Source of the DNA: a virus
Lineage: Duplodnaviria; Caudoviricetes
Reading direction: 5' to 3' (one strand)
IMG/VR virus record: IMGVR_UViG_3300033076_001181
Location: 1-64,000 of that record
Length of the DNA: 64,000 nt
The translations under genes and the position numbers were made by a program. This document shows, one piece after another, positions 29,355-52,198 of this stretch. Under the pieces are notes generated by a model. It did no database searches and was not told where the DNA came from. It was given only the letters and a program-made list of their open reading frames with translations. The stretch's first letter is position 1; each line of letters opens with the position of its first letter.

Positions 29355-29792
29355 ATATTCTAGAGCATCTATAAATTCTCTCTCATCAAAATGTTGAATA
29401 GTAGTCATATCCATTCTATACTCATAGAATTTGCCTGGTTGTTTTGGGATTGGGTATTTTTCTTTTTCTTCTTCAGTTACAGGAACTGCTTTAACAGCTG
29501 ACCATTTCCACTCCTTGGCATTAGTACCATTGGCGAATACCATTCCTTGCTTAGGTTCATTAATAGTTTGTGGTAACCATATTAACCCTGTTGATTCATC
29601 TTTCCAAGCTAAATCTCTATACAATTCAGGCAATGAAGACATTTGTTCAGTATAGAACTCACTTCCTTCTTTCATTAAACTATTAGTCCAATATCCACAA
29701 GATAAAGACATCCAGTTAGTTATTTCAGGTGTGACCTGTGTTTCATAACACAAGTCACCTCCTGATTTAGGGCACATTATAATTTTATCCAT
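29337..29792 (-). CDS. hypothetical protein
   Basis: 151 aa; CPKSG...SCGYW, WLPQTIN...GMVF motif. Confidence 0.6.
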   Translation of the reverse strand: MDKIIMCPKSGGDLCYETQVTPEITNWMSLSCGYWTNSLMKEGSEFYTEQMSSLPELYRDLAWKDESTGLIWLPQTINEPKQGMVFANGTNAKEWKWSAVKAVPVTEEEKEKYPIPKQPGKFYEYRMDMTTIQHFDEREFIDALEYIGLIG

Positions 29793-31095
29793 TGTTTTCT
29801 ACTTTTTGTAATTTAGGTAATTCAATTTTCTTTAATTTAGGTAACTGTAATTGTACTTGTTTTGGAAACTCAGGAATATATTTAGTGAATAATTCATCTG
29901 TTTTATCCTTCATTTTATCCCAACTAAATTCATTTTTACTTCTATATGCTTGACGTTTTCCACCATCAACATATTTTTTATAATCAGTAAATATATCCAT
30001 CATGGAATTCGCAGCTTGTTGATGATCAACTGAAAACCATTGTGATTCTTTTAGTAACCATCCATTTGCCGCACTTGGGTGAACATTTGTTAATTGACCA
30101 GGCAACATAGTAGTGAATTCAGATTTTAAGAAATCAGTATGACCACTCCAATTAGTTGTTATAATTGGTTTTTTAGTTAGACTAAATTCAAGTAATGGTC
30201 TACCATATCCTTCACCTTTAGTTAAATTAATCATTGCTTTAACTTTAGAATGATTATATAACTCATTCATTTCAACGTCTGTGAATTCACCATGTAATAG
30301 ATAAACATTAGGTAAATCTTTACTATTAACTGATTTAGCAATTAATTTAATTTTCTTTAAAATATCATCTCTATCAACATATGAAGATCCCATTTGAGAT
30401 GTTTTTAAAATTAATGCTGGTTTGTCTTTCTTATTCTTAAATACTTCAAAGAACATTTTAATTAATAGACCAACATTTTTTCTATCTTCACCCACATCTC
30501 CATTAATCCAATGACCAACAAACAAGAAAGCAAATTTTTCTTTAATATTAGTTAATTCAGAGAATGAATCTACTTTATCTAATACTTTATAAATTTCAGT
30601 ATCAGCACCTTCAAATAACACTTCAATTGGTTTTTCAACTTTAACTTCTCCTATTACTTGATTAGTACGTTGATCTACTTTTTGTAATGCTGTGTCTAAA
30701 AATACTTTTTTAGAATGCTCAGATGAAGTTAATGTTAAATTCATTCTATTTACTCCCTCAATCCAATCTCCAGGTGCTAATGTTGTTTCAATACCTGCTG
30801 TCACACCAATATTATATTTTCCAACTGGTTGGAATTCACTTGGGATAGTAATCTGCATCCAAATATCAGGTTGTGAGTTGAGTTGAGGTTGAGTCCAAAT
30901 ATGTTTATTTAAAAATTCCCATTCTGGGTTTTCATTGATGAATCCCCAAGGTGTATTACCCCACATTTGAGGAATGATTTTAACATCATATTTATCTAAT
31001 TGAATAATTGCTCTAACTAAATCTCGAGAGCGCGCTCCATAACCACTATAAGTGTCAATAGGGCAGGAGATAAAAAATAACGGTTTGTTTTCCAT
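29785..31095 (-). CDS. glycosyltransferase, GT4-like (GT-B fold)
   Basis: SGYGARSRD, FLFVGHW, RKNVGLL, KGEGYGRPLLEF, TTNWSGH. Confidence 0.85.
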   Translation of the reverse strand: MENKPLFFISCPIDTYSGYGARSRDLVRAIIQLDKYDVKIIPQMWGNTPWGFINENPEWEFLNKHIWTQPQLNSQPDIWMQITIPSEFQPVGKYNIGVTAGIETTLAPGDWIEGVNRMNLTLTSSEHSKKVFLDTALQKVDQRTNQVIGEVKVEKPIEVLFEGADTEIYKVLDKVDSFSELTNIKEKFAFLFVGHWINGDVGEDRKNVGLLIKMFFEVFKNKKDKPALILKTSQMGSSYVDRDDILKKIKLIAKSVNSKDLPNVYLLHGEFTDVEMNELYNHSKVKAMINLTKGEGYGRPLLEFSLTKKPIITTNWSGHTDFLKSEFTTMLPGQLTNVHPSAANGWLLKESQWFSVDHQQAANSMMDIFTDYKKYVDGGKRQAYRSKNEFSWDKMKDKTDELFTKYIPEFPKQVQLQLPKLKKIELPKLQKVENNG

Positions 31096-31101
31096 AACTG
31101 T

Positions 31102-32538
31102 TTAGTATACTAATTTGTGAGGTACTACTTTATCTTTAACTTCATTTGTGTTTATAAATTCATATTTTTCTCTTGGCTTCCAAGTCTTAAATAATTTATC
31201 TAAAGTAGTGATTACTTTTTTACCCATATTTGAACCTGTGAAACCTGCTTCATCTGATAAAGCCCACTCACGTCCTTTAAGGCCTAATGTTTTTCTTTCT
31301 TCTTTAGACAACTTATAAACATTCATAATTTGTTCAGCTGCTTCTTCTGCATTACATCTATCATCCCAAATATAAGGTGTTAGTGGTGAACCTTGAATTG
31401 ATCTATTAGTTGGGTATACTGGAAACGCCCATTCACCATGGTCTTTGATTTTACCAGTATGGTTAGAAGGAAACTCAGCATTAAAATCAATCCATTTGCC
31501 TTTTTTGCTAAAACGCATTTGATCTTGCATTCCACCAGTCACATTAGCAATAATTGGATTGCCTACTAAAATAGCTTCAGTTAAACTTAATCCCCAACCT
31601 TCATTATTAGTTAATAAAATTTGAGCATCAGTAGCATTATAAAGCATGTTCATTACATCTGGTGTTCCATACTTATCAGAGTAGATAATATTATATTTAG
31701 TATCACTACCAAATAACATTTCTTGTACTGCTGCTAAATCTGTTCCATTGTCATCTACTACTTGAGTATGTAAAACAAAAGCACATTTTCTTGCTTGTTC
31801 TTCAGTTAATGAATCAATAAAGATTTTGTAAGCAAACATTGTATCTGGAATTTGTTTGCGGCGAATATTTCTTGAATTAAAGAATAAAGCAAAATCAATA
31901 TCTTTACCTTTAAACAAATCTTTTTTAAATGCTTTTAACTGTTCATCATTTTGATTAAGTGGTTTAAAAATATTTTCATTTAGACCATGAGGTACATATT
32001 CAATGATTTTATTTTTAGCTTTATCACCTAATACTAATTCATTGATATTTTTAGTCTGTTTTGAAATAGCTAATAAAGCATCACATGATTCATAATATGG
32101 TCTATTATACATTGGTGCTGGGTAGTCGTCCCAAATATTCAAGTATATAATAGGCATTTTTCTTCTAATCTCATTTTCAATTTGGAATAACCAAATGAAA
32201 TATCTTGGATCAGTAATCAAGAAAATAGCGTCTGGTTTTTCAACGCTTATTAGTTGCCTAATCATACGAGCATCACCATATCCATTGCTTGGGTATAAAA
32301 TAACTGAACTGTCAGTTAACCCAGTGTTAGTGTTGGTATCTACGCTTAGATCTAAACGTTTGCCTGCTTCTGGGTGATTAATTGCTCCACCCACATTTAC
32401 CCAGTTAAAATGTTGAGCAGTGTTAATTACTAATTCTCGAGCGACTGTTGCTACACCTGAGTGTACTCTAATGTCGTCACAAATCAGTAAGATTTTTTTC
32501 CTCTCATTTTGAGGAAGATAACCAAAACTTTGATTCAT
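31102..32538 (-). CDS. glycosyltransferase, GT4-like (GT-B fold)
   Basis: ILLICDD...SGVA, YVPHGL, RNIRRKQ, NEGWGLSLTEA, NVTGGMQDQ. Confidence 0.85.
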   Translation of the reverse strand: MNQSFGYLPQNERKKILLICDDIRVHSGVATVARELVINTAQHFNWVNVGGAINHPEAGKRLDLSVDTNTNTGLTDSSVILYPSNGYGDARMIRQLISVEKPDAIFLITDPRYFIWLFQIENEIRRKMPIIYLNIWDDYPAPMYNRPYYESCDALLAISKQTKNINELVLGDKAKNKIIEYVPHGLNENIFKPLNQNDEQLKAFKKDLFKGKDIDFALFFNSRNIRRKQIPDTMFAYKIFIDSLTEEQARKCAFVLHTQVVDDNGTDLAAVQEMLFGSDTKYNIIYSDKYGTPDVMNMLYNATDAQILLTNNEGWGLSLTEAILVGNPIIANVTGGMQDQMRFSKKGKWIDFNAEFPSNHTGKIKDHGEWAFPVYPTNRSIQGSPLTPYIWDDRCNAEEAAEQIMNVYKLSKEERKTLGLKGREWALSDEAGFTGSNMGKKVITTLDKLFKTWKPREKYEFINTNEVKDKVVPHKLVY

Positions 32539-35534: not shown

Positions 35535-35795
35535 TTAATAATCTCCATACATGTTAAACTTCTTTGGTGGTGGAGGTGGTGCTTTTTCAACCACCTTACT
35601 ATCAATAGCATATAACTCACCTTTTATAGGTGATAATCTGAAGTCACATGGTTGTTGAACTTCTTGAAAATAACCCTCTAATGCATCTGTTAATGAAGGG
35701 TATACATAAGTAGGATCACTAAGCAATGCCCACCTATCTGAAGGTGGGACACGCTTAGCAATCAACACGACTTCTTCCTTAACTTCGGTAGCCAT
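35535..35795 (-). CDS. hypothetical protein
   Basis: 86 aa, coupled to groEL stop; IAKRVPPSDRW motif. Confidence 0.6.
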   Translation of the reverse strand: MATEVKEEVVLIAKRVPPSDRWALLSDPTYVYPSLTDALEGYFQEVQQPCDFRLSPIKGELYAIDSKVVEKAPPPPPKKFNMYGDY

Positions 35796-37411
35796 TAGAA
35801 CATACCTCCCATTCCGCCCATCATATCATCCTGCTTTTTATCTTCAGGCTTGTCTACGACTGTGCATTCGGTTAATAAAATTGTTCCTGCTACTGAAGCG
35901 GCGTTTTCGATCGCGGTCCTCGTGACTTTCGTTGGATCAATAATACCAGCTTCTTTCATGTTTACCATCTTATCAGAAGTGATATTGTAACCTTTCCAAT
36001 TGTCTTTGCCTGTTAATTTATTAATTAACCCAAATGACTCTTGGTCAGTATAACCGGCGTTAGATAAAATCTTCATAAATGGTGACGCACATGCTTTATA
36101 AACAATGTTTCCACCTGTTGTATGACGATTTACAATTGCTTCACGAGCATAAATTAAAGCAGCACCACCACCTGGAACAATACCTTCTTCAATTGCAGCT
36201 TTAGTTGCTTGAAGTGCATCGTCTACGCGATCTTTCTTTTCTTTAACTTCTGTTTCGGTATTACCACCTACGTGAATAATTGCTACTCCTCCGATAAATT
36301 TCGCCAGTCTTTCTTGGAGTTTTTCTTTTTCAAAGGGCGAATTTGCTTTTTCGATTTGTTGCTGTAGCTCTTCAATACGTGTTTCAATTCGTTCAGGTTG
36401 TCCTTTTCCATCAATAATGGTTGTTTGATCTTTTGTTACTGTTACAACTCGGGCTTCACCAAACCATTTTGAATCAAAACGATCTAATTTCATACCCTTA
36501 TCAGTACTAAATACCTCACCACCTGTTAAAAGTGCGATATCTTCTAAAATCAATTTTCTACGATCACCAAAGTCAGGAGCTTTAACTGCTGCTACTTTAA
36601 GTGTACCTCTCATTTTATTTACAATCAATGTTGCTAATGCTTCACCTTCAATATCCTCAGCAATGATAAACAATGGTCTACCTTGAGATGATACTGCCTC
36701 TAGCAATGGTAGCAATTCTTTAATCGCTGTAAATTTCTTATCTGCGATAAGGATAAGTGGATTTTCTAATGTACAAGACATTGAGTTGTTGTCTGTTACA
36801 AAGAAATGTGATTTGTAACCACGATCAAATTGCATACCTTCTACTGTTTCAAGATAAGTATCGCCTGACTTTGATTCCTCAATATAAACAACTCCCTCAC
36901 GACCTACTTTTTGCATTGCAGTTGCAATCAATTTTCCTACTTCAGGATCGTTATTTGCAGAAATTGTAGCTACTTGTTCCAATTGATCTTCAGAACTGAT
37001 GTCTTGTGAAATGCTTTTACGTAATTCTGTTACTACATCTTTAACTGCAGCATCAATTTCACGCTTAATAGTTACAGCGTTAACTCCATTGTTTAATGAT
37101 GTTAAACCTTCTTTAACCATGTTTTGAGCCAACAATGTTGAAGTAGTTGTACCATCACCTGCACCATCAGCAGTTTTAATAGCTGCTTGTTTAACCATTT
37201 GTACACCCAATTCTTCAATTGGATCTTCAAGTGAGATACTTTTTGCTACTGTTACTCCATCTTTTGTTGATTGTGGGTAACCACCTTGATTTGCTATAAC
37301 CACATTACGACCATTTGGACCTAATGTAGACGTAACTGCGTTTGCTAATTTGTCAATACCAGTTACGAGTTTTTTCCTTGCTTCAGGACCGAATTCGATA
37401 ATTTTACTCAT
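35795..37411 (-). CDS. groEL: chaperonin GroEL
   Basis: TLGPNGRNV, TKDGVTVAK, GDGTTT, EGMQFDRGY, GIVPGGG, C-terminal GGM repeats. Confidence 0.98.
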   Translation of the reverse strand: MSKIIEFGPEARKKLVTGIDKLANAVTSTLGPNGRNVVIANQGGYPQSTKDGVTVAKSISLEDPIEELGVQMVKQAAIKTADGAGDGTTTSTLLAQNMVKEGLTSLNNGVNAVTIKREIDAAVKDVVTELRKSISQDISSEDQLEQVATISANNDPEVGKLIATAMQKVGREGVVYIEESKSGDTYLETVEGMQFDRGYKSHFFVTDNNSMSCTLENPLILIADKKFTAIKELLPLLEAVSSQGRPLFIIAEDIEGEALATLIVNKMRGTLKVAAVKAPDFGDRRKLILEDIALLTGGEVFSTDKGMKLDRFDSKWFGEARVVTVTKDQTTIIDGKGQPERIETRIEELQQQIEKANSPFEKEKLQERLAKFIGGVAIIHVGGNTETEVKEKKDRVDDALQATKAAIEEGIVPGGGAALIYAREAIVNRHTTGGNIVYKACASPFMKILSNAGYTDQESFGLINKLTGKDNWKGYNITSDKMVNMKEAGIIDPTKVTRTAIENAASVAGTILLTECTVVDKPEDKKQDDMMGGMGGMF

Positions 37412-37412
37412 A

Positions 37413-37715
37413 TTATTCTTCTATTGTTTCAATAATTCCTAAGATTTGATTTTCTGGGCACACCCAATATTCTTGGCCTTCCAATTCTACTTTAGTAGGA
37501 CCCATTGTGGGTAGCATTACTTCCATACCTACTTCCAATGTTGTAGGAATAAGTTCACCTGTCACTGATGGTTGTCCTGGGCCTACAGATACAACTGTTC
37601 CAATTAGGGCTTTTTCTTTACCTAGATCAGGTACGATGATGCCCCCATACATCGTTTCTTCTTCTTCACGGGGTTTAACTATAACCGCGTTAAATGTTGC
37701 TTTTAACTGTTTCAT
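37413..37715 (-). CDS. groES: co-chaperonin GroES
   Basis: VIVKP, GGIIVPD..KEK, GTVVSVGPG, ILGII. Confidence 0.95.
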   Translation of the reverse strand: MKQLKATFNAVIVKPREEEETMYGGIIVPDLGKEKALIGTVVSVGPGQPSVTGELIPTTLEVGMEVMLPTMGPTKVELEGQEYWVCPENQILGIIETIEE

Positions 37716-39528: not shown

Positions 39529-42117
39529 TTAAAAACTAAAAAATTTATTAACATTAGCGTTTAGTGGTGGAAATTCCCACTTAAGATCTTTATAAAGTTC
39601 CTTTAATTTGTTTAATAATAATGATTCAAAGATCTCATCTATATCAATATATGTTTTAACAAATTTTTCTATTTCATCAGGAACCTTAGCATTTGGTAAA
39701 CCAACTGTTTCTAATTTATATGGGTTGGCTTTTAAGTTAATGATAAAAATCTTATCACCTTCAATAATAGATTCATATTGTTTATCTAATTTTTTAAACC
39801 TTAATAAATCATTATAGCGAACAGCTGCTTTAGTATTAGATGGTGCTTTCAATTTAAATGTACTAAACATTTCACCTGCTCTAGGAGTGTTTCTATATGA
39901 GGCAATTTGTTTTACTCCTGTTGGTTTACCTAGTTCTCGTGGGTCTAATGTTTTAACTAACTTATAGAAGTTAATAATTGAATTGTCTAATTCATGTTTT
40001 GGCTTACCAAATAAAATATCTTTAATAAATTGTTCACCAAACGATTTGAATCGTTTATTCATATTAGACTTCATCAACTCTAGACCTTTCATGTCTAGTT
40101 CTTCAACAGCAACACCTTCCTTATTAGTAACATACATTGCGTATCTTCTCTTACCTGTAACTAAGATACCAGTAGCAATTACTTCTTGTTTTAACTGAAA
40201 GTAATGTTTAGAAGCATCAATGTTAAATAAATTCTTACACATTGTGTTAAGATTATTATTTGCTTCATCTTGTATCTCAATTGCCATTTCTAGAATGTAC
40301 TTGTCTTTCTCTTCTTTAGTGGCGTTAGGATATCTATGTCTTAATAAATCACCTAATTCAATATACATAGAGTCAGTATCACTAATACAAATGTATTGTT
40401 TGTCTTCTGATTTTAGCTCAGTATTTAGTTTATCATTAGTGAATATGATTGATTCTTGAGTCAATCTTTGACCTGTGTTTGTAATAGCAGCACTACAAAT
40501 TAATTGACCATCAGTATATCTCCATCCACTTTTAGCGAATGTACCATACATAGCGTTTTGCAAGATCTTAAATGCATGTTGGAACAAATCATATAATTTA
40601 TAGTTAGCCCAATCTTCTTCTTTACCTGCTTTCTTCTTTAGACCTCTATAATGTTCTCGTTTTTCAAACCAACCTTCTAAAATCTTAGCAACTACACTTT
40701 GTTCATCTGTTCTAAACATTGCCCCAGAAGCAGATATAGTGAATTTATTATCTTCAATAATCTTAATAAGTTCACCTATAGTAATCTTAGCCTGTGATGT
40801 TGTATAGTTCTTTTTATTTACTTTTTCAACAACAATTACTTCTTTAGGGTCACGTTCTTTAAGTTTTTCTAAACTATGGTTTTGTTCATAGGTTGGTCTA
40901 TGATCAACTTTAATTCTACCAACTAATGTTTCAATACCTAAATTAAGTGATTTAATAATTGAAGGATATAGTGAAGTAAAGTCTAAGTCAATAACATCAA
41001 AGTACAAACCAGGTATTGGTTCTAATAGATAACCACCAGCATATGTTTCCTTAAATGATTTTAATGCTTGATTATGAGTTGTTGGTTTATTAGGTGAAAT
41101 AATACCTTCACGTTTAAGATGCTTTAGAATAGCTCCTTCATTCATAACTGTATTCCAATAAATTGATTCATATGGAATATTACAGATATGAGAAATCATA
41201 ATTGTTAAGTTGATAAACTTAAGTTTATCTTCTAACGCTTCAATAATTTCAACGTCTCGTAAGTTATAGTCAATAAAAGTATCTATATCATCTCTGAATA
41301 GTGTATTTAAGTTACCTTCATATTCAATCTTACCTAAACCAACATATTTAGCTCCAATATCACCTAATTTATATGATGGTTCTTCTTTCATGATGTACTT
41401 TTTATGTAACAACATGTAATCTAAACAATTCACACCTCCAATAGTGATTTGTGATTCACCATTAAATTCTCGTTGTGATACTTTCTTAAGTGGGGATAAA
41501 CGGGCGGTCTCTGCTTCACCGACAACATTCATAAGTCTATGGTAAATGTACGGTATATCGAAGTAATCTGAGTTATAACCGACTAATATTGTTGGGTCTA
41601 GTTCCTCAAATTTAGATAAGAATTTACCTATTAACTCACGTTCATTTTTACAAGGAATGATATGTTTGCTGTTCTGATTCGTTTCTTGGATTTGTCCTGA
41701 TGGGTCAACTACAAAACATATTTTTTGTTTAGTAGTCACGTCTATTAGAGCAATAGATGTGATTGGCATAGGAGCTTGTTGAATATAGTAAGGTGTTAAT
41801 GCACCTCCCATTTCAATCTCAATATCTATATAAACTATATTATGCCAAGCAGGAACAGTATCTTCTTCTTTATAATATAACTCTCGAAGTATTAGTAGAT
41901 TTTTATCAATATCCTTTTCTAACAAGTCAGGATCATTTTTATCTAATTTTTTAGTAGGTATAGCCCAACCGCCAGTTAGAACTGGTCTAGCACCTTCTTG
42001 ATATTCATTTACACGTTTCCAATAAGTTGGTTGGAATTGGAACTCTAACCAGCCTTGTTTATCATCTCGTAAATGATAAGTGTAAGTTGAGAAATCATAA
42101 TAAATACTTTGATACAT
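39529..42117 (-). CDS. DNA polymerase family B (T4 gp43-like)
   Basis: exonuclease DIEIE, GYNS..FD, YNLRDV; polymerase DFTSLYPS, KILQNAMYG, SDTDS, KRRY. Confidence 0.97.
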   Translation of the reverse strand: MYQSIYYDFSTYTYHLRDDKQGWLEFQFQPTYWKRVNEYQEGARPVLTGGWAIPTKKLDKNDPDLLEKDIDKNLLILRELYYKEEDTVPAWHNIVYIDIEIEMGGALTPYYIQQAPMPITSIALIDVTTKQKICFVVDPSGQIQETNQNSKHIIPCKNERELIGKFLSKFEELDPTILVGYNSDYFDIPYIYHRLMNVVGEAETARLSPLKKVSQREFNGESQITIGGVNCLDYMLLHKKYIMKEEPSYKLGDIGAKYVGLGKIEYEGNLNTLFRDDIDTFIDYNLRDVEIIEALEDKLKFINLTIMISHICNIPYESIYWNTVMNEGAILKHLKREGIISPNKPTTHNQALKSFKETYAGGYLLEPIPGLYFDVIDLDFTSLYPSIIKSLNLGIETLVGRIKVDHRPTYEQNHSLEKLKERDPKEVIVVEKVNKKNYTTSQAKITIGELIKIIEDNKFTISASGAMFRTDEQSVVAKILEGWFEKREHYRGLKKKAGKEEDWANYKLYDLFQHAFKILQNAMYGTFAKSGWRYTDGQLICSAAITNTGQRLTQESIIFTNDKLNTELKSEDKQYICISDTDSMYIELGDLLRHRYPNATKEEKDKYILEMAIEIQDEANNNLNTMCKNLFNIDASKHYFQLKQEVIATGILVTGKRRYAMYVTNKEGVAVEELDMKGLELMKSNMNKRFKSFGEQFIKDILFGKPKHELDNSIINFYKLVKTLDPRELGKPTGVKQIASYRNTPRAGEMFSTFKLKAPSNTKAAVRYNDLLRFKKLDKQYESIIEGDKIFIINLKANPYKLETVGLPNAKVPDEIEKFVKTYIDIDEIFESLLLNKLKELYKDLKWEFPPLNANVNKFFSF

Positions 42118-42137: not shown

Positions 42138-42488
42138 TTAACCACTTACTAACTGCACTTCAACATAATTGTCATCCACATATCCATCCTCTACATAATA
42201 TAATTTAACTGTTGTTCTTCCAGAAACTGGACTAAGTCTAGCTGGGAGTAATGATTTTAAATTATTTATTAATTCTACATATGGATTACTATAATTAGGA
42301 GACACATACACTATTCCTGGGTCAGTATTAGGAATAGATTTTTGATTAGGATTTAAATTTATTAAATCTGAGTATCTATTACTATTATTAGGTGATATAT
42401 ATACTTTTCCAGGGTTAGTATTGGGGATAGATTTTTGATTAGGATTACTATCAATTAATTTTTTATATCTATCCCCAAATGTAGCCAT
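42138..42488 (-). CDS. tandem-repeat protein, probable virion component
   Basis: two 31-aa repeats; C-terminal YVEDGYVDDNYV; ATATTTAT at 42500-42507. Confidence 0.55.
   Translation of the reverse strand: MATFGDRYKKLIDSNPNQKSIPNTNPGKVYISPNNSNRYSDLINLNPNQKSIPNTDPGIVYVSPNYSNPYVELINNLKSLLPARLSPVSGRTTVKLYYVEDGYVDDNYVEVQLVSG
42301..42470. repeat. 93-bp tandem repeat, about two copies
   Basis: atagatttttgattaggatt at 42334 and 42427 (93 bp apart), in frame. Confidence 0.8.
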
Positions 42489-42507: not shown

Positions 42508-42996
42508 TTATTTATCAAGGAACTGCTTTAAATTAGGACGAAAGTAATTTATGTTTTTCATTACTTTACGATCCCGAGTTCTATAAACAATCCAATAGTC
42601 ACCTACTTTTTCATAATGACATGGTTCACCTTGTTCTTGTTCACGTACTTTAACTGTTTCTTTAGCTTCAGCTTCGTCTTTACAAGCTTTAGACATATTA
42701 CTTGCTTGAACTTCTGCGTACGCGGGTTGAATTTTGTCTTTTAATCCGTGCAGCATGGCTCCGTTTCCTAGCGACACATATGTAATATCGCACAAGGCGT
42801 CTAAGACCTCTACTATGTTTCCTGTTTCGCATGCATGTTTATATTCTTCTAGTTCTTCTAATATAAAATTGTAAACAAATTCCCATTCTTTTTTAGCTGG
42901 GATTGTTGGTTCATAATTGTTTGGTTTACCCATTGTAGCGTTAAATGTTTCTACTTCGCTAATAAATGGGACATAATTTTCTTTAGATTGAGACAT
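42508..42996 (-). CDS. MazG-like / PRA-PH nucleoside triphosphate pyrophosphohydrolase
   Basis: FILEELEEY, VEVLDALCDI.YV, EVQASNMSK, DRKVMK. Confidence 0.8.
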   Translation of the reverse strand: MSQSKENYVPFISEVETFNATMGKPNNYEPTIPAKKEWEFVYNFILEELEEYKHACETGNIVEVLDALCDITYVSLGNGAMLHGLKDKIQPAYAEVQASNMSKACKDEAEAKETVKVREQEQGEPCHYEKVGDYWIVYRTRDRKVMKNINYFRPNLKQFLDK

Positions 42997-42998
42997 GA

Positions 42999-43121
42999 CT
43001 ATTGACTATTATTTATTATTTCTTTAAGTTTTAACATATAATCATAATATGGATCTTCACCATGAACATGAACTAAACGCTCATAAATCCATTCCAAATG
43101 ATTTCTATCAGATTGAGACAT
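42999..43121 (-). CDS. small hypothetical protein, 40 aa
   Basis: MSQSDRNHLEWIYERLVHVHGEDPYYDYMLKLKEIINNSQ between folE and mazG-like gene. Confidence 0.5.
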   Translation of the reverse strand: MSQSDRNHLEWIYERLVHVHGEDPYYDYMLKLKEIINNSQ

Positions 43122-43803
43122 GACCATTATTTATTTTAAGTGAATCAAAAAATTCTTTACGTGCTAAGTTATCATTTTCCATAAACACACCTGATGCTTT
43201 AGTAGTAACCATAGCAGCACCTTGATGTTTAATACCACGACAACTTACACAGTTGTGAGTTGCAACTACAGTAACAATAACACCATGGTTGCCTTCACAA
43301 ACCTTATTTACTGCTTGATGAATAGCTGCTGTTAATTGTTCTTGGATAGCACCTCTACGACCAAAATGTTCTACAATACGATTTAGTTTTGATAAACCAA
43401 TTACTCGGCCTTCTTTACCTGCAATGTAACCAATATGTACTACACCTCGAATTGTTTGGTGATGATGCGAACACATTGAAGTTAATTGAATATTACGCTC
43501 AATAATTACTCCATCATAACCATCTGACGGAAATGAAGTAATATCAGTAAATCCATTGTAACGACCAGCCCACAAATCATTAACATATGCTTTAGCTACA
43601 CGACGAGGTGTATCAGCAGAGTTAGGATCGTTTTGCCAATCACATTTTAGTGCTGTTAGGAAATTACCAAAATGTACTGTTGCTTCTTCAATCATTTGTT
43701 GCTTTTCTTCATCTGTCAATGGACGATCTAAAGCTGAACCGTTTGCGAGACCATTCTTAACGCATTCGATATCATTGTGAAATTTTTTTCTATTATTTTC
43801 CAT
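43108..43803 (-). CDS. folE: GTP cyclohydrolase I
   Basis: DTPRRVAK, SMCSHH, VIGLSKLNR, IQEQLT, HNCVSCRG. Confidence 0.95.
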   Translation of the reverse strand: MENNRKKFHNDIECVKNGLANGSALDRPLTDEEKQQMIEEATVHFGNFLTALKCDWQNDPNSADTPRRVAKAYVNDLWAGRYNGFTDITSFPSDGYDGVIIERNIQLTSMCSHHHQTIRGVVHIGYIAGKEGRVIGLSKLNRIVEHFGRRGAIQEQLTAAIHQAVNKVCEGNHGVIVTVVATHNCVSCRGIKHQGAAMVTTKASGVFMENDNLARKEFFDSLKINNGHVSI

Positions 43804-43808
43804 ATAAC

Positions 43809-43840
43809 CTAATATAATAAATTATTTTTAAATTGCCAAT
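43809..43840 (-). promoter_or_regulatory. early promoter (variant)
   Basis: ATTGGC...TATATTAG with 20-nt spacer upstream of folE. Confidence 0.65.
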
Positions 43841-44337
43841 ATATATGGCAAACTTCTTTTTTGATGATGTTCATCATCCATTCCATATCCAACTACCCAC
43901 TCATCAGTTATTTCAAATCCATAAATTGAACCTACTGGTAAGTCAATTTCATTGATTGCTCGTTTAATTAGAGTAACTATTTGAACTGATGCAGCTCCTT
44001 CATAAATGAAATGTTTACGCAATGTATCCATTGTAACTCCTGAGTCATAGATGTCATCTATAAGGTAGACATGGTTATCTTGCATCTCTAATGACTCACG
44101 AAGTTTAATTTCTAAATCACCTCGTTCTTGACCCTCATATGACTTTACTTTTATAAAGTCACATTTTGGATCAAGTGAGGATAACTTTTTAACTAATTCA
44201 CTATAAAACATAAAACCACCATTCAATACACAAATTAGAATAATTGGTCGTTTTTCTGATTTATGACGATTAAAAATTTGGGTTGCGATTTCATCAATTC
44301 GCTTTTCAATTTGGTTTTGATTAAATAATACTTTCAT
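43828..44337 (-). CDS. hpt: hypoxanthine/guanine phosphoribosyltransferase
   Basis: ICVLNGGFMF, KSYEG, PRPP motif LIDDIYDSGVT, WVVGYGMD. Confidence 0.88.
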   Translation of the reverse strand: MKVLFNQNQIEKRIDEIATQIFNRHKSEKRPIILICVLNGGFMFYSELVKKLSSLDPKCDFIKVKSYEGQERGDLEIKLRESLEMQDNHVYLIDDIYDSGVTMDTLRKHFIYEGAASVQIVTLIKRAINEIDLPVGSIYGFEITDEWVVGYGMDDEHHQKRSLPYILAI

Positions 44338-44596
44338 ATAACTCTTTGATTGGATGTAACCCTGGGTATGATTTCTGTTTGCCTTTATAAGACATTATTA
44401 CATGTGGATAAAAATCTACTGCAAATTCGTCTTCTAATTCAGTTGCCTCATTAAGCTTAACTAATTTAAATTTTAATTTGTTAGCAATTTCTTCTACCAT
44501 AGGCATGGCTACTTTGCAGCCACCGCACCAATCGGCGTAAAAGAGTACTATAGTATTCTCTTTTTGTAGTGTTTCAGTTAATAGTTGTTTATTCAT
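44321..44596 (-). CDS. thioredoxin
   Basis: FYADWCGGCK, cis-Pro FYP. Confidence 0.85.
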   Translation of the reverse strand: MNKQLLTETLQKENTIVLFYADWCGGCKVAMPMVEEIANKLKFKLVKLNEATELEDEFAVDFYPHVIMSYKGKQKSYPGLHPIKELYESII

Positions 44597-45378
44597 TATA
44601 CTTCTCGTTTTGTATCAAATGCTATTATATGTTCTCTACCTGTGAAATTATAACCATTATCTCTACAAAAATCCATCACCATCGGATACACTCTAATTAA
44701 TTCATCTCTTGTATCACCAGGAGGCATTAACCATGTTTTACGTTTTGGAATATCCATTTCAACTCTAAACGCTTCAATCTCATTCCATGCTTCAGGCATT
44801 TCAATAGGATTACAAACTGGTTTGTAATGATAGTCACCATGGTATTCAATCATTTTCTTAATCGCGTCTTTATTAAGGCGGTATTTGTTATGTTGGTCCA
44901 CCATTTTTTGGTCTGCTTTCTTACCTTGCGGTGTATCAGTCCCAATTGCAGGCACACTATTACTGAACTTAGGAGACAAAGATACCAAACCGATTGGAAA
45001 GTCAGTTTCAATAAAATGAGAACCTTCTGTTTCAATTGTAATAAATAAGCCACGTTTTTCAGCTAAATGAGTTAATTCGTTTACTAGATCAGGATGCATA
45101 GTAGGTGAACCACCTGTTAACATCATTTCTCTAATATATGGGTTATTGTCATACATAGCAATAATATCATTGAATGTGTATTTTCCTTTTTCAGGATGAA
45201 TACTAGTATACCATGAATCACACCACCCACCTTCACCAAACCAACATCTATGAGTACATCCTGTAGTTCTAATAACTACTGTAGGCATTCCAGCTCTACT
45301 ACCTTCTGATTGTACAGCTGTATATAGCTCTATAATTGGAAGTGTTTTATTATAATCTTCTATTCTACCTGGTTTCAT
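44596..45378 (-). CDS. queE: 7-carboxy-7-deazaguanine synthase (radical SAM)
   Basis: ELYTAVQSEG, RTTGCTHRC...WCDS, LTGGSP, ITIETEG, SLSPK. Confidence 0.92.
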   Translation of the reverse strand: MKPGRIEDYNKTLPIIELYTAVQSEGSRAGMPTVVIRTTGCTHRCWFGEGGWCDSWYTSIHPEKGKYTFNDIIAMYDNNPYIREMMLTGGSPTMHPDLVNELTHLAEKRGLFITIETEGSHFIETDFPIGLVSLSPKFSNSVPAIGTDTPQGKKADQKMVDQHNKYRLNKDAIKKMIEYHGDYHYKPVCNPIEMPEAWNEIEAFRVEMDIPKRKTWLMPPGDTRDELIRVYPMVMDFCRDNGYNFTGREHIIAFDTKREV

Positions 45379-45863
45379 ATTTCCTCGTAAATTGAACTGT
45401 TATTATCATTTTCAAAACACTCTACTTTAATACATTTACAACGACCAGCATCAGTTTTAGATAAAACATCATTAAAATGTTCATATACCATTCTAGCAGC
45501 ACTTTCTGCTCCAATTTTATCCATGATAACTAACTTACATAGCCCTTCCATCTGCATTGTTTGGAACAAATCCAAATATGGATCATCTTTTTCAATCAAC
45601 ATTGTATGATCCCATTTATCATCCATCCAAGCTTTCAAACCATTACCTTGAGGTGCAGGTTTAAATCCACCATAGTCAACAATCCAATTCATATCATCCA
45701 ATTGTTTTTCAACATCTGGTTCAACACTTGCAAACCATACTTTAAATTTTAAAGCATAACCATGTAATAATTGACAGTGTGAGTGTTGTGCTTTCCATTG
45801 TCTGATTGCTACTGAATAGTTTTCAAATAATTTAGTTGATATATATCTTGTTTTAGTTTCCAT
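45375..45863 (-). CDS. queD: 6-carboxy-5,6,7,8-tetrahydropterin synthase
   Basis: HCQLLHGY, WIVDYG, WDHTML, GAES.A, VECFEN. Confidence 0.9.
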   Translation of the reverse strand: METKTRYISTKLFENYSVAIRQWKAQHSHCQLLHGYALKFKVWFASVEPDVEKQLDDMNWIVDYGGFKPAPQGNGLKAWMDDKWDHTMLIEKDDPYLDLFQTMQMEGLCKLVIMDKIGAESAARMVYEHFNDVLSKTDAGRCKCIKVECFENDNNSSIYEEI

Positions 45864-46107
45864 AATTTAGCCAGTCTATAATTTGATTAAATGATTTAAG
45901 TCCTGTAAAACGTCTTACTTCTTGTCCATTTTCTACTAATATAACAGTAGGAACACTACGAACATTTGCTGCTGTTAAAATAGCTGGGTCAACATAGTCA
46001 ATGTTTTGTTTACGAACAGGTATTTGTTTGGCAACATCTTCCATAATTGGACCTAATGTTTGACATGGGTTGCACCAATTTGCTGTGTAATAATATAATT
46101 CTTTCAT
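45853..46107 (-). CDS. thioredoxin
   Basis: TANWCNPCQTL, VRSVPT. Confidence 0.88.
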   Translation of the reverse strand: MKELYYYTANWCNPCQTLGPIMEDVAKQIPVRKQNIDYVDPAILTAANVRSVPTVILVENGQEVRRFTGLKSFNQIIDWLNYGN

Positions 46108-46414: not shown

Positions 46415-47299
46415 TTATTTATTGTGATTATTTAAAATTGTTTCTACATGTTTAACTACTGTCTCCCAACTTACAGGACCACTTTCATCAGCATAACTGC
46501 AAGGGTCTGGTTTTCCAAGTTTCATAAACGCTTCAACTCGTTCTACAGACGATGCTGATTTATAATCTGAGTACCATTTACCTCTTACTCCTGGGAATTC
46601 AGCTGTTTCTGGTTTGTTATTATGTGGCCAAAAGATTGGCTTATAAGATGTATTAGTGCGTGCATATACCTTGTTAAAATCAAGACCTAAGCACTCGCAA
46701 CAACTGTCACCATCTTGTAAGATAGAGTATTTATCTCCATTTAAATACGGTGTATAGTGATATACTTTTTCAGCTCCCCAATTACCTGCTTTGAATGCTT
46801 CAAAATCGATATCTCTAAATTCTTGACGACAATCAGGATAGATAGCATGATCACCAGCATGAATACCCATTGCAATAGCACATTCAGTATTCTTTTGTTC
46901 AGCAATTGATAATGCAACTGCTTGAATAATAGAACTAAATATTTTATTACGATTTGGTACTACTGTTGCTTTCATATTTTCTTCAGCATAGTGTCCTTCA
47001 GGTACTTCATCACCTCCAGTTACTAGAGCTGAGTTTAATAGTTGTTGTAAACCATCTAATTTGATTACTTGATGTTTTACTTTAGGAAATTTTTCATCCC
47101 ATACTGGTTTATCAGTTTTTGTTAAATTATTTTCATTAATATATTTAACTAAATCTTTAGCACGCTCTAATTCTACATTATGTTTTTGTCCATAATCAAA
47201 TGATAATGCTGTAACTTCATAGCCATTGGCAAGTAGATGAAGCAATAGTGTGGAGCTATCCATTCCTCCACTTAGTGATAATACTGCTTGTTTATTCAT
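46415..47299 (-). CDS. queC: 7-cyano-7-deazaguanine synthase
   Basis: SLSGGMDS, SFDYGQKH..E, VPNRN, GIHAGDHAIYPDCR. Confidence 0.93.
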   Translation of the reverse strand: MNKQAVLSLSGGMDSSTLLLHLLANGYEVTALSFDYGQKHNVELERAKDLVKYINENNLTKTDKPVWDEKFPKVKHQVIKLDGLQQLLNSALVTGGDEVPEGHYAEENMKATVVPNRNKIFSSIIQAVALSIAEQKNTECAIAMGIHAGDHAIYPDCRQEFRDIDFEAFKAGNWGAEKVYHYTPYLNGDKYSILQDGDSCCECLGLDFNKVYARTNTSYKPIFWPHNNKPETAEFPGVRGKWYSDYKSASSVERVEAFMKLGKPDPCSYADESGPVSWETVVKHVETILNNHNK

Positions 47300-47554: not shown

Positions 47555-48352
47555 TTATTGTTTTATACCGTTAATTTTTTTAAATGTAAATAAATTGTGA
47601 TAAATTAATGGAAAATGAGGAGCCAAATCATCATAAGTCATATTCATTGTTTCATCAATTTTAATTTTAGGTTTAGTTAATAGACCATTTTTAGTGTATT
47701 CTAAACCTTCAATGCCAGCCATTATAGGATTTGATGTATCAATTGTTTCTACAAATGGCATATAGTGATAGAAATTAAATTCTTGTGGTGCGGCGCATCC
47801 TAACAAATGTACTCTGTCATTAGTTTCAATAACTTTATCTTTAAACAACTTACTAATTACAGCTACACGACCCATTGAAGCAGCAATTGCTGTAATTGGA
47901 TGTGGAAAATGTTCTTGATAGTAATTAGCACCATATGAGAATGCAATCTTTTTATATCCTAACATCTTATATTTAGTATAACACTCAGCTGCTTCTTCAA
48001 TACTTTTAGCTTGAACAACTGCTACTTTAGTTGTATAGTAAGGCAATTTAATTCTAGCCCATTCAGCAGCATTTTCTAAAGATGCTTCCATATCCTGCCA
48101 TACATCAGGAACAATAAATTCATTTGGTTCAAAATATTCAACCCAATGTAATAAACGATCTGTATCATAAGCATGTCCTAGTTCATGTAAACTATTATCC
48201 ATGATGATATAACGATCATTTTCTTTAGCCCATTTAAAATAATTTAAATAGTCCTCATTCTGATCTAGCAAATGAGGTAAACAATAATCATAGTGATTAA
48301 ATGTTGGAGAGCTCTTAATTAGAGCAACTGGAACTTCGTGTGATACTTTCAT
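47555..48352 (-). CDS. divergent guanine transglycosylase (TGT/DpdA fold), probable DNA 7-deazaguanine inserter
   Basis: ordered TGT-like motifs IMDNS, PDV, VAVVQ, IAFSYG, VHLLG, IDTSNP; no tRNA-TGT zinc domain; beside queC. Confidence 0.72.
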   Translation of the reverse strand: MKVSHEVPVALIKSSPTFNHYDYCLPHLLDQNEDYLNYFKWAKENDRYIIMDNSLHELGHAYDTDRLLHWVEYFEPNEFIVPDVWQDMEASLENAAEWARIKLPYYTTKVAVVQAKSIEEAAECYTKYKMLGYKKIAFSYGANYYQEHFPHPITAIAASMGRVAVISKLFKDKVIETNDRVHLLGCAAPQEFNFYHYMPFVETIDTSNPIMAGIEGLEYTKNGLLTKPKIKIDETMNMTYDDLAPHFPLIYHNLFTFKKINGIKQ

Positions 48353-48398: not shown

Positions 48399-48923
48399 TT
48401 AGAATGGTTCTTTTAAAGTATTTTGTCGTTCAATCCATTTAGGATATTGTTTGATAATTTCTTCAACAGTACCTTCAGCTACTTCATAAACAAATTGCTT
48501 GACCTGTTCTTTACGCCCACTGAAATGATATTGGAGACTATATAATAAACTATCCATTCTATCTTTTTCATCACGTTCAAAATCTTTTCTTAGATTATCA
48601 AATCGTCTTTTATAGTCTCTATAAATTTCCATTTCAGCATCTTTTTTGAACTCATGTGATTTATCACTATTGCGGACTTCAACAATTTCTTCAGCCATCC
48701 ACCAATATTCATAATTTAGATATTGGGCGTACGGTGAATAATCAAAGTCACCATTTTTTAGTTTCTCATCAATACGAGCTCTATCCTTTAATGATTTATG
48801 AGTTGGATATCGTCTATGCCAATAATAAACATTAAACTTAGCCATTTTAGGTGGTTTAGGAGGAGCTGGATCACATGTACTTAGTGGGTGATACTCTCTT
48901 AAAACTTCTTCAATTGTAACCAT
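48399..48923 (-). CDS. hypothetical protein
   Basis: 174 aa; KLKNGDFDYSPY motif. Confidence 0.6.
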   Translation of the reverse strand: MVTIEEVLREYHPLSTCDPAPPKPPKMAKFNVYYWHRRYPTHKSLKDRARIDEKLKNGDFDYSPYAQYLNYEYWWMAEEIVEVRNSDKSHEFKKDAEMEIYRDYKRRFDNLRKDFERDEKDRMDSLLYSLQYHFSGRKEQVKQFVYEVAEGTVEEIIKQYPKWIERQNTLKEPF

Positions 48924-49516: not shown

Positions 49517-51238
49517 TTATCCCTCACAACTCACACAATCAGATAGTCGTTGTAAATTATCTCCTCTTAATACTGATTCAGTACGTAGGTAGTATAATGT
49601 TTTAACTCCTGTCTTATGAGCTTCCTTATGTACTTGACTAATCCACTTTGGTGTGTCATTTGGATCAAAACATAAGTTTAATGAAATTGCTTGATCAACA
49701 TATTCTTGTCTAATAGCATTTTGTCTTACAATTTCTAACTGGTTGATTTCTTTAAATGTTAAGAACACTTCTTTTTCTTCATCAGTTAAAATATAAGACG
49801 GAACATTGATTACTGATCCTTGATCTTTAAGTATTTGATCCCAAACACTATCAATGTTGTATCCTTTTGACTCAAGTAATTGTTCTAATACTTTATTACG
49901 TTTAATGAATACACCTTTTGCTGTTTTCAAATTATAAACGTTAGCAGGTATAGGTTCAATTGATGGGGACACACCTCCTGAGATATGAGCGTTTGATACT
50001 GTAGGTGCGATTGCTAAGTGATGAGTATGTCTCATACCTGTACCTTTACACCATTCTGGTTCACCATATAATTCTGCTTGATCACGAGATGCTTTTAGAG
50101 CGCCTTTTTCAATAAAGTCAAACATCATTCTAGTGTAAGCACTCGCTTGAATACCTACAAACGGTAAATTCTTTTGTTGTAAGAATGTATGCCAACCTAA
50201 AACACCAATTCCAATTGCTCTACCTTTAGTAGCTGAACGAACTGTGTTTTCCATGAATTTGATGTTTTTAGCTCTATCAATAAATTCTTGTAATACACCT
50301 TCTAGGAACCAACAAGTTATTTCAGGTAATGTCATTCCATTTTCAAATGTATAATCTTTCCATTCATCCCAACGAGCTAAATTTAAAGACGACAAACAAC
50401 AAATAAATGAGTGTAATTCGTCTGTATATAAGGCAATCTCAGAACAGATGTTAGTCATTGATACATGTAAGTTATTTTTCTTATATGCTTCAGGATTAGC
50501 ATTGTTAATGTTATCTTCAAACATTAAATAGGGTTCACCTGTTTCTAAACGTGTCTTAAGAATTTCACCCCACAATTTTAATGACTTAGGATCTTTATTA
50601 TCCAAATCATTCATAAACTTATCATCAATAACAATACATTGATGTAAATTCAAACATTGACGATTAACATCACCTTTTGGTCTACGAATTTGTAAAAACT
50701 CTTCAATATCTGGGTGATGGATACTTAAGTTAACTGATGCTGCTCCTCTACGAACACTACCTTGGTTAGTAGCTAAAATAGTAGAATCATAAATTTTACA
50801 CCATGGAACTACACCTTCTGATACTCCATTGTCTTTAATTGCTTTACCTCGGCCTCTAATGCGAGATACACCAATACCTACTCCACCACCTTGAGATGAT
50901 AGTCTCATTAATTCAGAGTTAGCATCCGCAATACCTTCAATACTATCACCAACATCAATACCAAAACATGAAATAGGCATTCCACGTTCTGTACCTAGGT
51001 TTGATAATACAGGTGATGCTAAGCATAACCAGTTTTTAACTATTGCTTCATAAAAGAATGGTTGTAAATCTTTTCGTCTTAAACGACGTGCTGCTGATTT
51101 ACTTACTCTCTTATAAGCATCAAATACATCTTCATCAGGTAGTAAATATCCCTTAGATATCATACTAACTGCTATTTCATCCATCCATTCAGGATAGTGT
51201 TTTCCTTTAATCCAATTTGTTGTGTCTACTGCGCTCAT
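49517..51238 (-). CDS. nrdA: ribonucleotide reductase class I alpha subunit (no ATP cone)
   Basis: ASPVLSN, ISCF, GGGVG, RRGAAS, TNICSEI, CCLSSLN, IAPTVS, KTLYY, C-terminal CVSCEG. Confidence 0.95.
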   Translation of the reverse strand: MSAVDTTNWIKGKHYPEWMDEIAVSMISKGYLLPDEDVFDAYKRVSKSAARRLRRKDLQPFFYEAIVKNWLCLASPVLSNLGTERGMPISCFGIDVGDSIEGIADANSELMRLSSQGGGVGIGVSRIRGRGKAIKDNGVSEGVVPWCKIYDSTILATNQGSVRRGAASVNLSIHHPDIEEFLQIRRPKGDVNRQCLNLHQCIVIDDKFMNDLDNKDPKSLKLWGEILKTRLETGEPYLMFEDNINNANPEAYKKNNLHVSMTNICSEIALYTDELHSFICCLSSLNLARWDEWKDYTFENGMTLPEITCWFLEGVLQEFIDRAKNIKFMENTVRSATKGRAIGIGVLGWHTFLQQKNLPFVGIQASAYTRMMFDFIEKGALKASRDQAELYGEPEWCKGTGMRHTHHLAIAPTVSNAHISGGVSPSIEPIPANVYNLKTAKGVFIKRNKVLEQLLESKGYNIDSVWDQILKDQGSVINVPSYILTDEEKEVFLTFKEINQLEIVRQNAIRQEYVDQAISLNLCFDPNDTPKWISQVHKEAHKTGVKTLYYLRTESVLRGDNLQRLSDCVSCEG

Positions 51239-51247
51239 TTTTATTTT

Positions 51248-52198
51248 TTATAAATCATCCCAATCTGCTGTTGATTTTGAATAACTTGTTACTCGTCCAG
51301 CAAAGAAATCTTGATGTGTTTTACCTGATGTTAAATGACCAAACCACTCAATTTGTTTTAACAAACCTGGGTCAATATCATTATATATTGCATTATAACC
51401 TAATTCTGCCATTTTCTCGTTAGCACGTGCTTTAATGAAATTCTTTAATTGACTAGTATTCAACCCATCAATATCTCCCATTTCAAATGCTTTATCAATA
51501 AAATCAAATTCTAATTGTACTGATAATTGACATGCTTCAGCTACTTTATTTCTTAATTCAGCTGTATTTAGTTCAGGTTGTTCTTCAAGTAGTGTTTTGA
51601 ATAACCAACATCCTGCTTTAGAATGTAATGATTCATCTCTAACACTCCATTCAACAATTTGACCTGTTCCTTTCATTAAGTTTCTCAATTGGAAACTCAT
51701 TAATATAGCAAACGAACTAAACAAATTTACACCCTCAGTGAATGCTGAGAATATAGCTAATGATAATGCTCTTTCCTCTATTGTTTCGCCTGGTGTTTCA
51801 ACTAAGCGATCAATTTTAGCTTTTGATACTTCGTCCTCTAAGAATGCTTTAAAATTATCTAAACCTAATTCTTCATTTAAACGAGCATATGCCTCAGCAT
51901 GTATTGATTCAAAATCAGCAAATACACGAGCCATTGCTTGTATTTCAGGCTTTGGAAACCATACTGATACTTTAGTTGACCAATAATCGTTTACATGTAC
52001 TTCTGTTTGAGCAAATGACTTTAATATGTTTCCAATTAAATTCTTTTCTGGCTCTGTTAATTTTAATTTCCAATCGTTCAAATCTGAAGCGAGTGGAACT
52101 TCGTCTGCTAGCCAATGTGCTCTATGTTGATCTTTGTAAAAATCAAAAGCTGTTTGGTACTCAAACGGTTTATAGTAATTTCTAACGTCTGTAATCAT
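51248..52198 (-). CDS. nrdB: ribonucleotide reductase class I beta subunit
   Basis: HW...EV, FAQTE, ESIHAEAY, FTEGV, RDESLH, DFF. Confidence 0.95.
   Translation of the reverse strand: MITDVRNYYKPFEYQTAFDFYKDQHRAHWLADEVPLASDLNDWKLKLTEPEKNLIGNILKSFAQTEVHVNDYWSTKVSVWFPKPEIQAMARVFADFESIHAEAYARLNEELGLDNFKAFLEDEVSKAKIDRLVETPGETIEERALSLAIFSAFTEGVNLFSSFAILMSFQLRNLMKGTGQIVEWSVRDESLHSKAGCWLFKTLLEEQPELNTAELRNKVAEACQLSVQLEFDFIDKAFEMGDIDGLNTSQLKNFIKARANEKMAELGYNAIYNDIDPGLLKQIEWFGHLTSGKTHQDFFAGRVTSYSKSTADWDDL

Follow-up and report, generated by a model that had tools for sequence, protein, structure and literature searches.

Why does a phage gene cluster for 7-deazaguanine DNA modification also encode a purine phosphoribosyltransferase (PRTase) and a MazG-like pyrophosphatase? 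The question is raised by a 64,000-nucleotide stretch (hereafter, the window) that comprises positions 1 to 64,000 of the IMG/VR virus record IMGVR_UViG_3300033076_001181, a metagenomic viral contig of 78 kb judged to be ~47% complete. The two genes lie on either side of folE, in a cluster that also encodes DpdA3, a homologue of the tRNA-guanine transglycosylases (TGTs):

43828..44337, minus strand: Hpt-family (6-oxopurine) PRTase, 169 amino acids (aa) (Pfam PF00156 Pribosyltran, E 7e-20)
43108..43803, minus strand: GTP cyclohydrolase I (FolE), the first step of the 7-cyano-7-deazaguanine (preQ0) pathway (PF01227, E 1e-41)
42508..42996, minus strand: all-alpha MazG/PRA-PH-type nucleoside triphosphate (NTP) pyrophosphohydrolase, 162 aa (PF01503, E 2.5e-9; phrog_671, E 4e-28)

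An earlier note on this DNA had described an intact Hpt with the motif LIDDIYDSGVT between queE and folE and a MazG/PRA-PH-type pyrophosphohydrolase after folE, had placed both outside the canonical set, and had offered two models, one of guanine recycling and one of modification at the nucleotide level with MazG removing dGTP. Both enzymes are what the note took them for, at exactly the coordinates given, and both are non-canonical genes stably linked to the que/dpdA cluster; the PRTase does occupy the queE-folE slot but is not adjacent to queE, from which a thioredoxin gene (44321-44596) separates it. Here, we report that the PRTase is a conserved accessory of DpdA3-type clusters, and we weigh what it may do there.

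Judged by homology and residues, the PRTase is an intact and catalytically competent 6-oxopurine enzyme. It matches 57 Protein Data Bank (PDB) sequences of solved hypoxanthine-guanine(-xanthine) phosphoribosyltransferases, HG(X)PRTs, at E <= 1e-3 (best, 1hgx, E 2.4e-23, over residues 2-166); its identity to such enzymes of bacteria and protozoa (for example, 1hgx, 1g9s, and 5knr) is ~30-35% over the full length, and all of their catalytic motifs are present. The motif that binds phosphoribosyl pyrophosphate (PRPP), VYLIDDIYDSGVT, spans residues 90-102, includes LIDDIYDSGVT, and fits the expected pattern of a hydrophobic run and two acidic residues followed by x-x-D-(S/T)-G-x-T. We followed conservation in 48 distinct phage Hpt-type sequences, with positions mapped via alignment to 1hgx and with the roles of the base-contact residues taken from established structural knowledge of HGPRT. 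All homologues share the Asp-Asp ribose pair (D94 and D95), D98, and G100 of the PRPP motif, and 47/48 also have T102; the S66-Y67 pair of the flexible loop is present in 48/48, the stacking residue W147 in 44/48, and D154, the Asp for the exocyclic C2 group, in 45/48. Little or no variation is seen in the Asp that occupies the N7-contact position of HGPRTs or in the C-terminal-motif Asp and Arg, and R126, at the O6 site, is Arg in 34 homologues and Lys in 14. The PRPP motif, full-length homology, and base-contact residues expected of a 6-oxopurine PRTase are thus all found. Unlike cellular HG(X)PRTs, the phage enzymes mostly have Arg rather than Lys at the O6 site and are encoded at a fixed place beside folE in a DNA-modification cluster.

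That placement extends well beyond the window. In a PRTase-anchored scan of IMG/VR, the gene was immediately 5' of folE, within the same gene order, in 12/12 viral loci, even with family B DNA polymerases (PolB) that are 39-53% identical and PRTases that are only 41-46% identical. Two further scans were anchored on DpdA3, for which a pattern search with the single window sequence gave nothing and relatives came from an alignment-based search. The scan from the window protein found >572 relatives, the best 80 of which were kept (the window clade), with 45 of these reaching folE; the scan from DpdA3 of phage immuto yielded 65 loci that span queE to folE (the immuto clade). QueE, FolE, and PRTases in related loci were called by BLASTP at E <= 1e-5 to window or immuto proteins, not by Pfam. 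A 6-oxopurine PRTase was found at the queE-folE slot in 110/110 DpdA3-anchored viral loci, directly beside folE in 109 of them. It is the direct folE neighbor in 45/45 window-clade loci, as an Hpt-type enzyme upstream of folE in 35 and as a Gpt-type enzyme of 131 aa upstream in 5 and downstream in 5. It is likewise present in 65/65 immuto-clade loci, Gpt-type beside folE in 52, Hpt-type beside folE in 12, and Gpt-type two genes off in 1. The co-occurrence check suggested in the earlier note is therefore strongly positive for the PRTase in both kinds of scan, and its linkage to the cluster is far beyond chance. Wherever a PRTase-anchored locus extends far enough to cover the dpdA3 position, DpdA3 was present there, and the 160 loci of the two DpdA3 scans were all anchored on DpdA3 itself. 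While dpdA3 occupies different places in the window and immuto clades, the PRTase gene keeps to folE in each; from this, and from the fusions to FolE that occur elsewhere (see below), we conclude that the PRTase has a closer tie to FolE than to DpdA3. A literature search found no paper that ties a PRTase to phage deazaguanine DNA, the papers on phages iggy and immuto being silent on PRTases, and this accessory is apparently unreported so far.

As a separate observation on the same neighborhood, the thioredoxin/Hpt-type PRTase pair of both clades is often preceded, immediately upstream, by a gene for a 133-aa 4HBT thioesterase (L054:13645-14043, with equivalents in L057, L077, L085, and L177-L196).

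The slot is filled by two protein families. In pairwise comparison, the Hpt-type PRTase and the 131-aa Gpt-type PRTase have only the PRPP motif in common; the RGG, VDDIxDTG, and WIVxPWE motifs of the latter are those of Escherichia coli Gpt. Since two families fill one slot, their displacement of one another at a fixed position argues, as far as sequences can tell, for selection on the activity rather than on one gene lineage. Furthermore, several phage groups encode a FolE of ~300 aa with an N-terminal Gpt-like domain of ~115 residues whose PRPP catalytic motif is intact. The carriers are Queuovirinae-like phages and include Vibrio VpKK5-like, Pseudomonas (PaMx25, NP1, Baskent_P4_1, and others), Stenotrophomonas, Sphingomonas, Variovorax, and Xanthomonas phages; the fused domain has the motifs RGG, VDDIxDSGxT, and WxVFPWE. 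Two examples are as follows:

L020:5998-6900: Gpt-FolE fusion, Vibrio phage VpKK5 gp32
L019:5971-6864: Gpt-FolE fusion, Pseudomonas phage Baskent_P4_1

A FolE of ~300 aa is present in ~35 further phage records, where it is annotated only as GTP cyclohydrolase. Pfam at E <= 0.01 misses the fused domain, and the fusion apparently went unnoticed until now. The DpdA of VpKK5 is 45% identical to that of phage iggy, which makes GA-motif-specific dPreQ0 after replication (PMC10484667). Because of this resemblance, and through this homology only, a PRTase domain would appear compatible with base exchange in DNA.

The MazG-like protein scores 37.9 bits against PF01503 (cut-off, 21.3), and in its acidic metal-binding motifs (EExxE...ExxD) the residues E47, E48, E51, D66, and D70 are >=90% conserved in 45 diverse relatives, so that on sequence grounds it is a bona fide all-alpha NTP pyrophosphatase of the PRA-PH/MazG type. 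Its AlphaFold2 model is a helical bundle (pLDDT 95.5). No PDB chain matched the sequence at E <= 0.1; in the fold search, all 37 significant PDB matches were chains of one protein (probability, 1.00; TM, 0.61-0.76), DR2231 of Deinococcus radiodurans (2yeu and 5hva, with dUMPNPP and dUMP), a MazG-like enzyme cited as able to cleave dUTP (PMC5122711). DR2231 is thus the best and only significant structural match, from which the phage protein differs in its low identity (16-19% only) and in an added C-terminal beta-hairpin region (residues ~124-140).

The MazG-like gene is also stably linked to the que/dpdA cluster. Its product is unusually well conserved, with 79-94% identity across loci in which PolB shares only 39-53% with that of the window, and, in the immuto clade, the gene lies between folE and dpdA3 in 69/72 loci. 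In the remaining pattern of occupancy, a gene of the DCD/dUTPase superfamily or a classical dUTPase gene holds the slot instead (9/34 window-clade and 2/72 immuto-clade loci). Such replacements, a 165-aa DCD-like protein or a classical dUTPase, lie between folE and PolB at L054:16256-16750, L057:16602-17102, L012:1339-1833, and L041:12855-13304, and in the four complete or near-complete genomes checked, the MazG-like gene and the DCD/dUTPase gene are mutually exclusive. Hydrolysis of dUTP and dCTP is what the MazG-like and DCD/dUTPase folds are known to have in common. In its wider extent (phrog_671; 2,868 representatives at E <= 1e-3), the family occurs, at <40% identity, in many phages without que genes, and the only domain fusions found in it are tandem PRA-PH repeats, which give no hint of the substrate. 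Because of the DR2231 fold matches, the swaps with DCD/dUTPase genes, and the frequency of the family in phages without que genes, we consider it reasonably probable that the protein is a dUTPase-class house-cleaning enzyme of the replication module and not a dGTPase; a role directed at (d)GTP or deaza-NTPs is improbable. On the same grounds, the removal of dGTP by MazG that the earlier note had built into its nucleotide-level model finds no support. The one candidate from a search for an HD-domain deoxynucleoside triphosphatase was an HD-like gene in two complete relatives, remote from the cluster and with weak Pfam HD matches below threshold. The encoded proteins of ~250 aa with HD-like motifs (L201:1318-2094, in the complete relative G001, and L200:1294-2031, in immuto) are 50% identical to one another and could be nucleotide phosphohydrolases.

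The remaining genes of the cluster and its surroundings place these two enzymes in context:

44321..44596, minus strand: thioredoxin, between queE and the PRTase gene (PF00085, E 3e-14)
44596..45378, minus strand: QueE, a radical SAM enzyme, 7-carboxy-7-deazaguanine (CDG) synthase (PF04055; 83% nucleotide match to immuto queE)
45375..45863, minus strand: QueD, 6-carboxytetrahydropterin (CPH4) synthase (PF01242, E 3e-12)
45853..46107, minus strand: second thioredoxin (PF00085, E 8e-13)
46415..47299, minus strand: QueC, 294 aa (PF06508, E 4e-37, residues 4-220)
47555..48352, minus strand: DpdA3-family TGT-like protein, 265 aa (35% identity to immuto DpdA3, E 2e-58; phrog_19058, E 1e-39)
49517..52198, minus strand: class I ribonucleotide reductase (RNR), large subunit at 49517-51238 (PF02867, E 5e-95) and small subunit at 51248-52198 (PF00268, E 2e-64)
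42138..42488, minus strand: conserved 116-aa open reading frame (ORF) in the interval between the pyrophosphatase and PolB (48-51% identical homologues at the same position in L006 and L007)
39529..42117, minus strand: family B DNA polymerase, PolB (PF00136 and PF03104)

The window has a GC content of ~31%, and its minus strand carries nearly all ORFs of >=100 aa. Read 5' to 3' on that strand, the order is RNR small subunit, RNR large subunit, three small ORFs, DpdA3, an 85-aa ORF, QueC, two small ORFs, thioredoxin, QueD, QueE, thioredoxin, PRTase, FolE, the PRA-PH/MazG-like protein, the 116-aa ORF, and PolB, with GroES and GroEL further on. The region also encodes a helicase, an exonuclease, and a recombinase beside RNR, the thioredoxins, and PolB. 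A scan for promoters and terminators gave counts no different from those in shuffled sequence.

Several side observations concern these genes. The thioredoxin gene at 44321-44596 overlaps the start of the PRTase gene by 17 nucleotides and has the same position in many related loci; both thioredoxin genes are embedded in the que cluster, and both positions are kept in many relatives. In QueC, ~70 C-terminal residues past residue 220 fall outside the Pfam QueC match. A 174-aa ORF upstream of DpdA3 (48399-48923) and the 116-aa ORF (42138-42488) have zero Pfam or PHROG matches, and related loci have both of them at equivalent places; the former was considered as a kinase of the immuto/CP220 type and ruled out, there being no similarity. 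The phage also encodes two glycosyltransferase group 1 genes (29785-32538), and the GroES/GroEL pair lies at 35795-37715.

With a DpdA3-subfamily protein and FolE, QueD, QueE, and QueC all encoded, the window can be assigned from its genes to the DpdA3-type 7-deazaguanine DNA-modification clusters, and the phage probably replaces guanine with a 7-deazaguanine base. Its DpdA3 is 32-33% identical to the homologues of Campylobacter phages, and the motifs DNS, HLLG, and DTSNP, common to the CP220 and immuto proteins, are invariant. The DpdA3 phages immuto and phiST resemble the window in having a DpdA3 homologue (35% and 33% identity, respectively) and FolE, QueD, QueE, and QueC near replication genes (PMC10516641). 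In immuto the order queD-queE-(x)-PRTase-folE-NTP pyrophosphatase is also the same, and its gp63 is 79% identical to the window pyrophosphatase; the PRTases differ, Hpt-type in the window versus Gpt-type in immuto and phiST. All deoxyguanosine (dG) is replaced by a 7-deazaguanine in CP220, phiST, and immuto, with no detectable dG left in the latter two, the two characterized Bacteroidota DpdA3 phages, and the published DpdA3 pathway contains no PRTase, pyrophosphatase, or kinase (PMC10516641). Unlike immuto, the 78-kb contig, itself only about half complete, gave no QueF, DpdN, or phrog_2107 kinase; searches for QueF and for a thymidylate-kinase or AAA_28 kinase yielded only cross-matches to FolE and the clamp loader. 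Because no QueF was found, the end base is probably preQ0 or a base like 7-amido-7-deazaguanine (ADG), or an amide or other derivative, and not formyl-preQ1, as far as an incomplete contig allows.

What, then, might the PRTase do? From the identity and intactness of both enzymes, their placement, the family swaps, and the FolE fusions, we infer substrates and a loop. In this scheme, DpdA3 would exchange each DNA guanine for the 7-deazaguanine base and free guanine, the PRTase would couple the freed guanine to PRPP to give GMP, kinases would phosphorylate GMP to GTP, and FolE would return the GTP to preQ0 synthesis; FolE's substrate, GTP, does lie downstream of the PRTase product, GMP. By simple arithmetic, a genome of ~160 kb at 31% GC has ~50,000 G positions, each of which would otherwise cost 1 dGTP and 1 GTP, and the loop would halve the guanine cost of a fully substituted genome. 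It would also clear guanine, a base able to compete with preQ0 in TGT-type exchange; such competition by free guanine is established for tRNA TGTs. The retained N7-contact Asp seems to fit an ordinary purine substrate, and a 7-cyano or 7-carboxy group would need that space. Recycling of guanine into GTP for FolE is the reading that we favor over a nucleotide-level route, tentatively and short of calling it probable.

A number of points weigh against this guanine loop. Hosts normally carry their own Hpt or Gpt. To our knowledge, all other phage systems with complete base replacement reach it before replication. The base-contact residues of the PRTase cannot separate guanine from 7-deazaguanines, because both have the same Watson-Crick face. 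No PRTase was found in CP220 (100% dADG) or in Bacillus BSP7-like phages, all of which have DpdA3-like genes, and for this reason the PRTase is dispensable for DpdA3 systems. The FolE of iggy, a partial modifier studied by experiment, is unfused (207 aa), although a fusion was expected there, and no Escherichia phage with a Gpt-FolE fusion was found. Expression of DpdA3 in E. coli gave no modification, and its authors considered that other unknown enzymes may be needed (PMC10516641). Lastly, 69/69 immuto-clade loci have a phrog_2107 P-loop kinase gene flanked by dpdN and queF, and the kinase arrangements described next fit a nucleotide route as well as they fit the phosphorylation of GMP. In BSP7, the queE-folE slot holds a Cys-rich ORF (L203:2770-3270, BSP7_052) that has no Pfam match and looks HNH-like by eye, which suggests a mobile-element insertion at the queE-folE junction.

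The strongest competitor to the guanine loop is replacement before replication, in either of two versions. In the first, the PRTase would phosphoribosylate the finished 7-deazaguanine base, a kinase and RNR/thioredoxin would convert the product to the deoxy-diphosphate, and the phage polymerase would incorporate the modified nucleotide; in the second, dGMP or dGTP would be the substrate for base exchange by DpdA3, with the guanine recycled through the PRTase. In both, the NTP pyrophosphatase would lower dGTP. Taken together, we regard the two versions as unlikely. The 100% replacement in CP220, phiST, and immuto and the inactivity of DpdA3 in E. coli are on their side, as is the window order itself, which runs from RNR through DpdA3, the que genes, thioredoxin, PRTase, FolE, and NTP pyrophosphatase to PolB. 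We also count for this route the likeness of DpdN to PurN, an enzyme whose substrate is a phosphoribosylated amine. A modified-dGTP route has been proposed for Campylobacter phages (PMC6884629). The kinases that accompany DpdA3 in phage lineages unrelated to one another add to the case:

L001:3885-4409: P-loop kinase (AAA_28, phrog_2107, annotated as thymidylate kinase), immuto gp68
L003:12819-13361 and L003:10868-11899: P-loop kinase and HD-kinase genes, CP220 gp057 and gp055
L021:1501-1992: P-loop kinase accompanying DpdA3
L203:4336-4899: P-loop ORF of Bacillus phage BSP7 (BSP7_056), which immediately precedes the DpdA3-like gene

In CP220, the phrog_2107 kinase flanks DpdA3 together with the HD-kinase fusion, and in one complete relative of the window phage a kinase of this family is also found outside the cluster. 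In phiST, gp064-gp067 (L018:8989-13085) start with a Gpt-type PRTase and a deoxynucleoside monophosphate kinase (phrog_139, E 1.5e-34) and, past an unknown gene, end with the RNR large subunit. These genes lie ~15-20 kb from DpdA3 and are absent from the discussion in the phiST pathway paper.

Two comparisons with known systems bear on the same route. The nucleoside pathways for tubercidin and toyocamycin are characterized by a purine-type PRTase within a FolE/QueD/QueE cluster, and TubE is a proven CDG-PRPP transferase (PMC6112128). The window resembles the TubE/ToyH clusters in encoding a purine-type PRTase with FolE, QueD, and QueE (and QueC), a likeness of cluster content that would extend to function only if the phage PRTase accepts 7-deazaguanine; those clusters have no TGT or DpdA and make free nucleosides, whereas the window has DpdA3. 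Phages with Z genomes (MazZ, DatZ, and PurZ; PMC8342488, PMC8065100) have a formally similar module of a pyrophosphatase, a base-changing enzyme, and their own polymerase. In the window, unlike in those phages, the base-changing enzyme is a TGT homologue rather than a nucleotide synthetase, and the pyrophosphatase shows no sign of (d)GTP specificity.

Against replacement before replication, DpdA3 is kept in every cluster, yet would have no role in the first version. The N7-contact Asp is invariant in phage PRTases, at what would be the site of a 7-substituent, and the PRTase has its tie, at times a fusion, with FolE, which opens the pathway, and not with QueC or QueF, which close it. The pyrophosphatase looks dUTPase-like and is swapped with classical dUTPases, and no dGTP-removing enzyme was identified, the weak, distant HD-like gene being the only candidate found. 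CP220 and BSP7 lack the PRTase for this purpose as well.

A less probable explanation is generic nucleotide metabolism, with the PRTase in purine salvage and the pyrophosphatase in cleaning up deoxynucleotides for a large lytic phage, and both near the que genes through early-gene clustering; we rate this as quite improbable. The RNR, thioredoxin, PolB, helicase, exonuclease, and recombinase genes of the same region would be expected company, MazG-like genes turn up often in phages that have no que genes, and the phiST PRTase sits, far from DpdA3, within a nucleotide-metabolism module. Such clustering does not readily explain one precise slot held in every DpdA3-anchored locus despite two PRTase families, a moved dpdA3, and PolB identity down to 39%, nor FolE fusions in unrelated phage lineages. 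It also sits poorly with the rarity of the window's Hpt-type PRTase, for which tblastn against 50,697 phage records gave only 18 records, mostly unannotated fragments or bacterial-looking, 11 of which list no host. That the PRTase or PRTase-like domain is instead a regulator or sensor that binds PRPP, GMP, or (p)ppGpp and tunes FolE, in the manner of PyrR or PurR, would suit its N-terminal fusion to FolE in several lineages and a fused domain below Pfam detection, but is very improbable given that neither the free-standing nor the fused proteins have lost any of the catalytic PRPP motif or the residues that bind the base.

The DpdA3 system itself was already known; the PRTase accessory is the new part. 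For the question of how the characterized DpdA3 phages reach 100% guanine replacement, our analysis names linked candidates, namely the PRTase, often a P-loop kinase, and the NTP pyrophosphatase slot, and phage immuto on Flavobacterium sp. LMO8 offers a culturable system in which to test them. Although we think it unlikely, DpdA3 phages may replace all guanine before replication, with the PRTase, kinase, RNR/thioredoxin, and pyrophosphatase as the "unknown enzymes" of the failed reconstitutions; a route of that kind would be new among DNA hypermodification pathways and would give TGT-fold enzymes a new class of substrate. Whichever substrate the PRTase turns out to have, the answer would aid the enzymatic making of fully 7-deaza-substituted, restriction-resistant DNA. 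If the PRTase acts on deazaguanines, it would open a new pre-replicative route to hypermodified DNA; if it recycles guanine, the phage would close a metabolic loop around its DNA-modification reaction.

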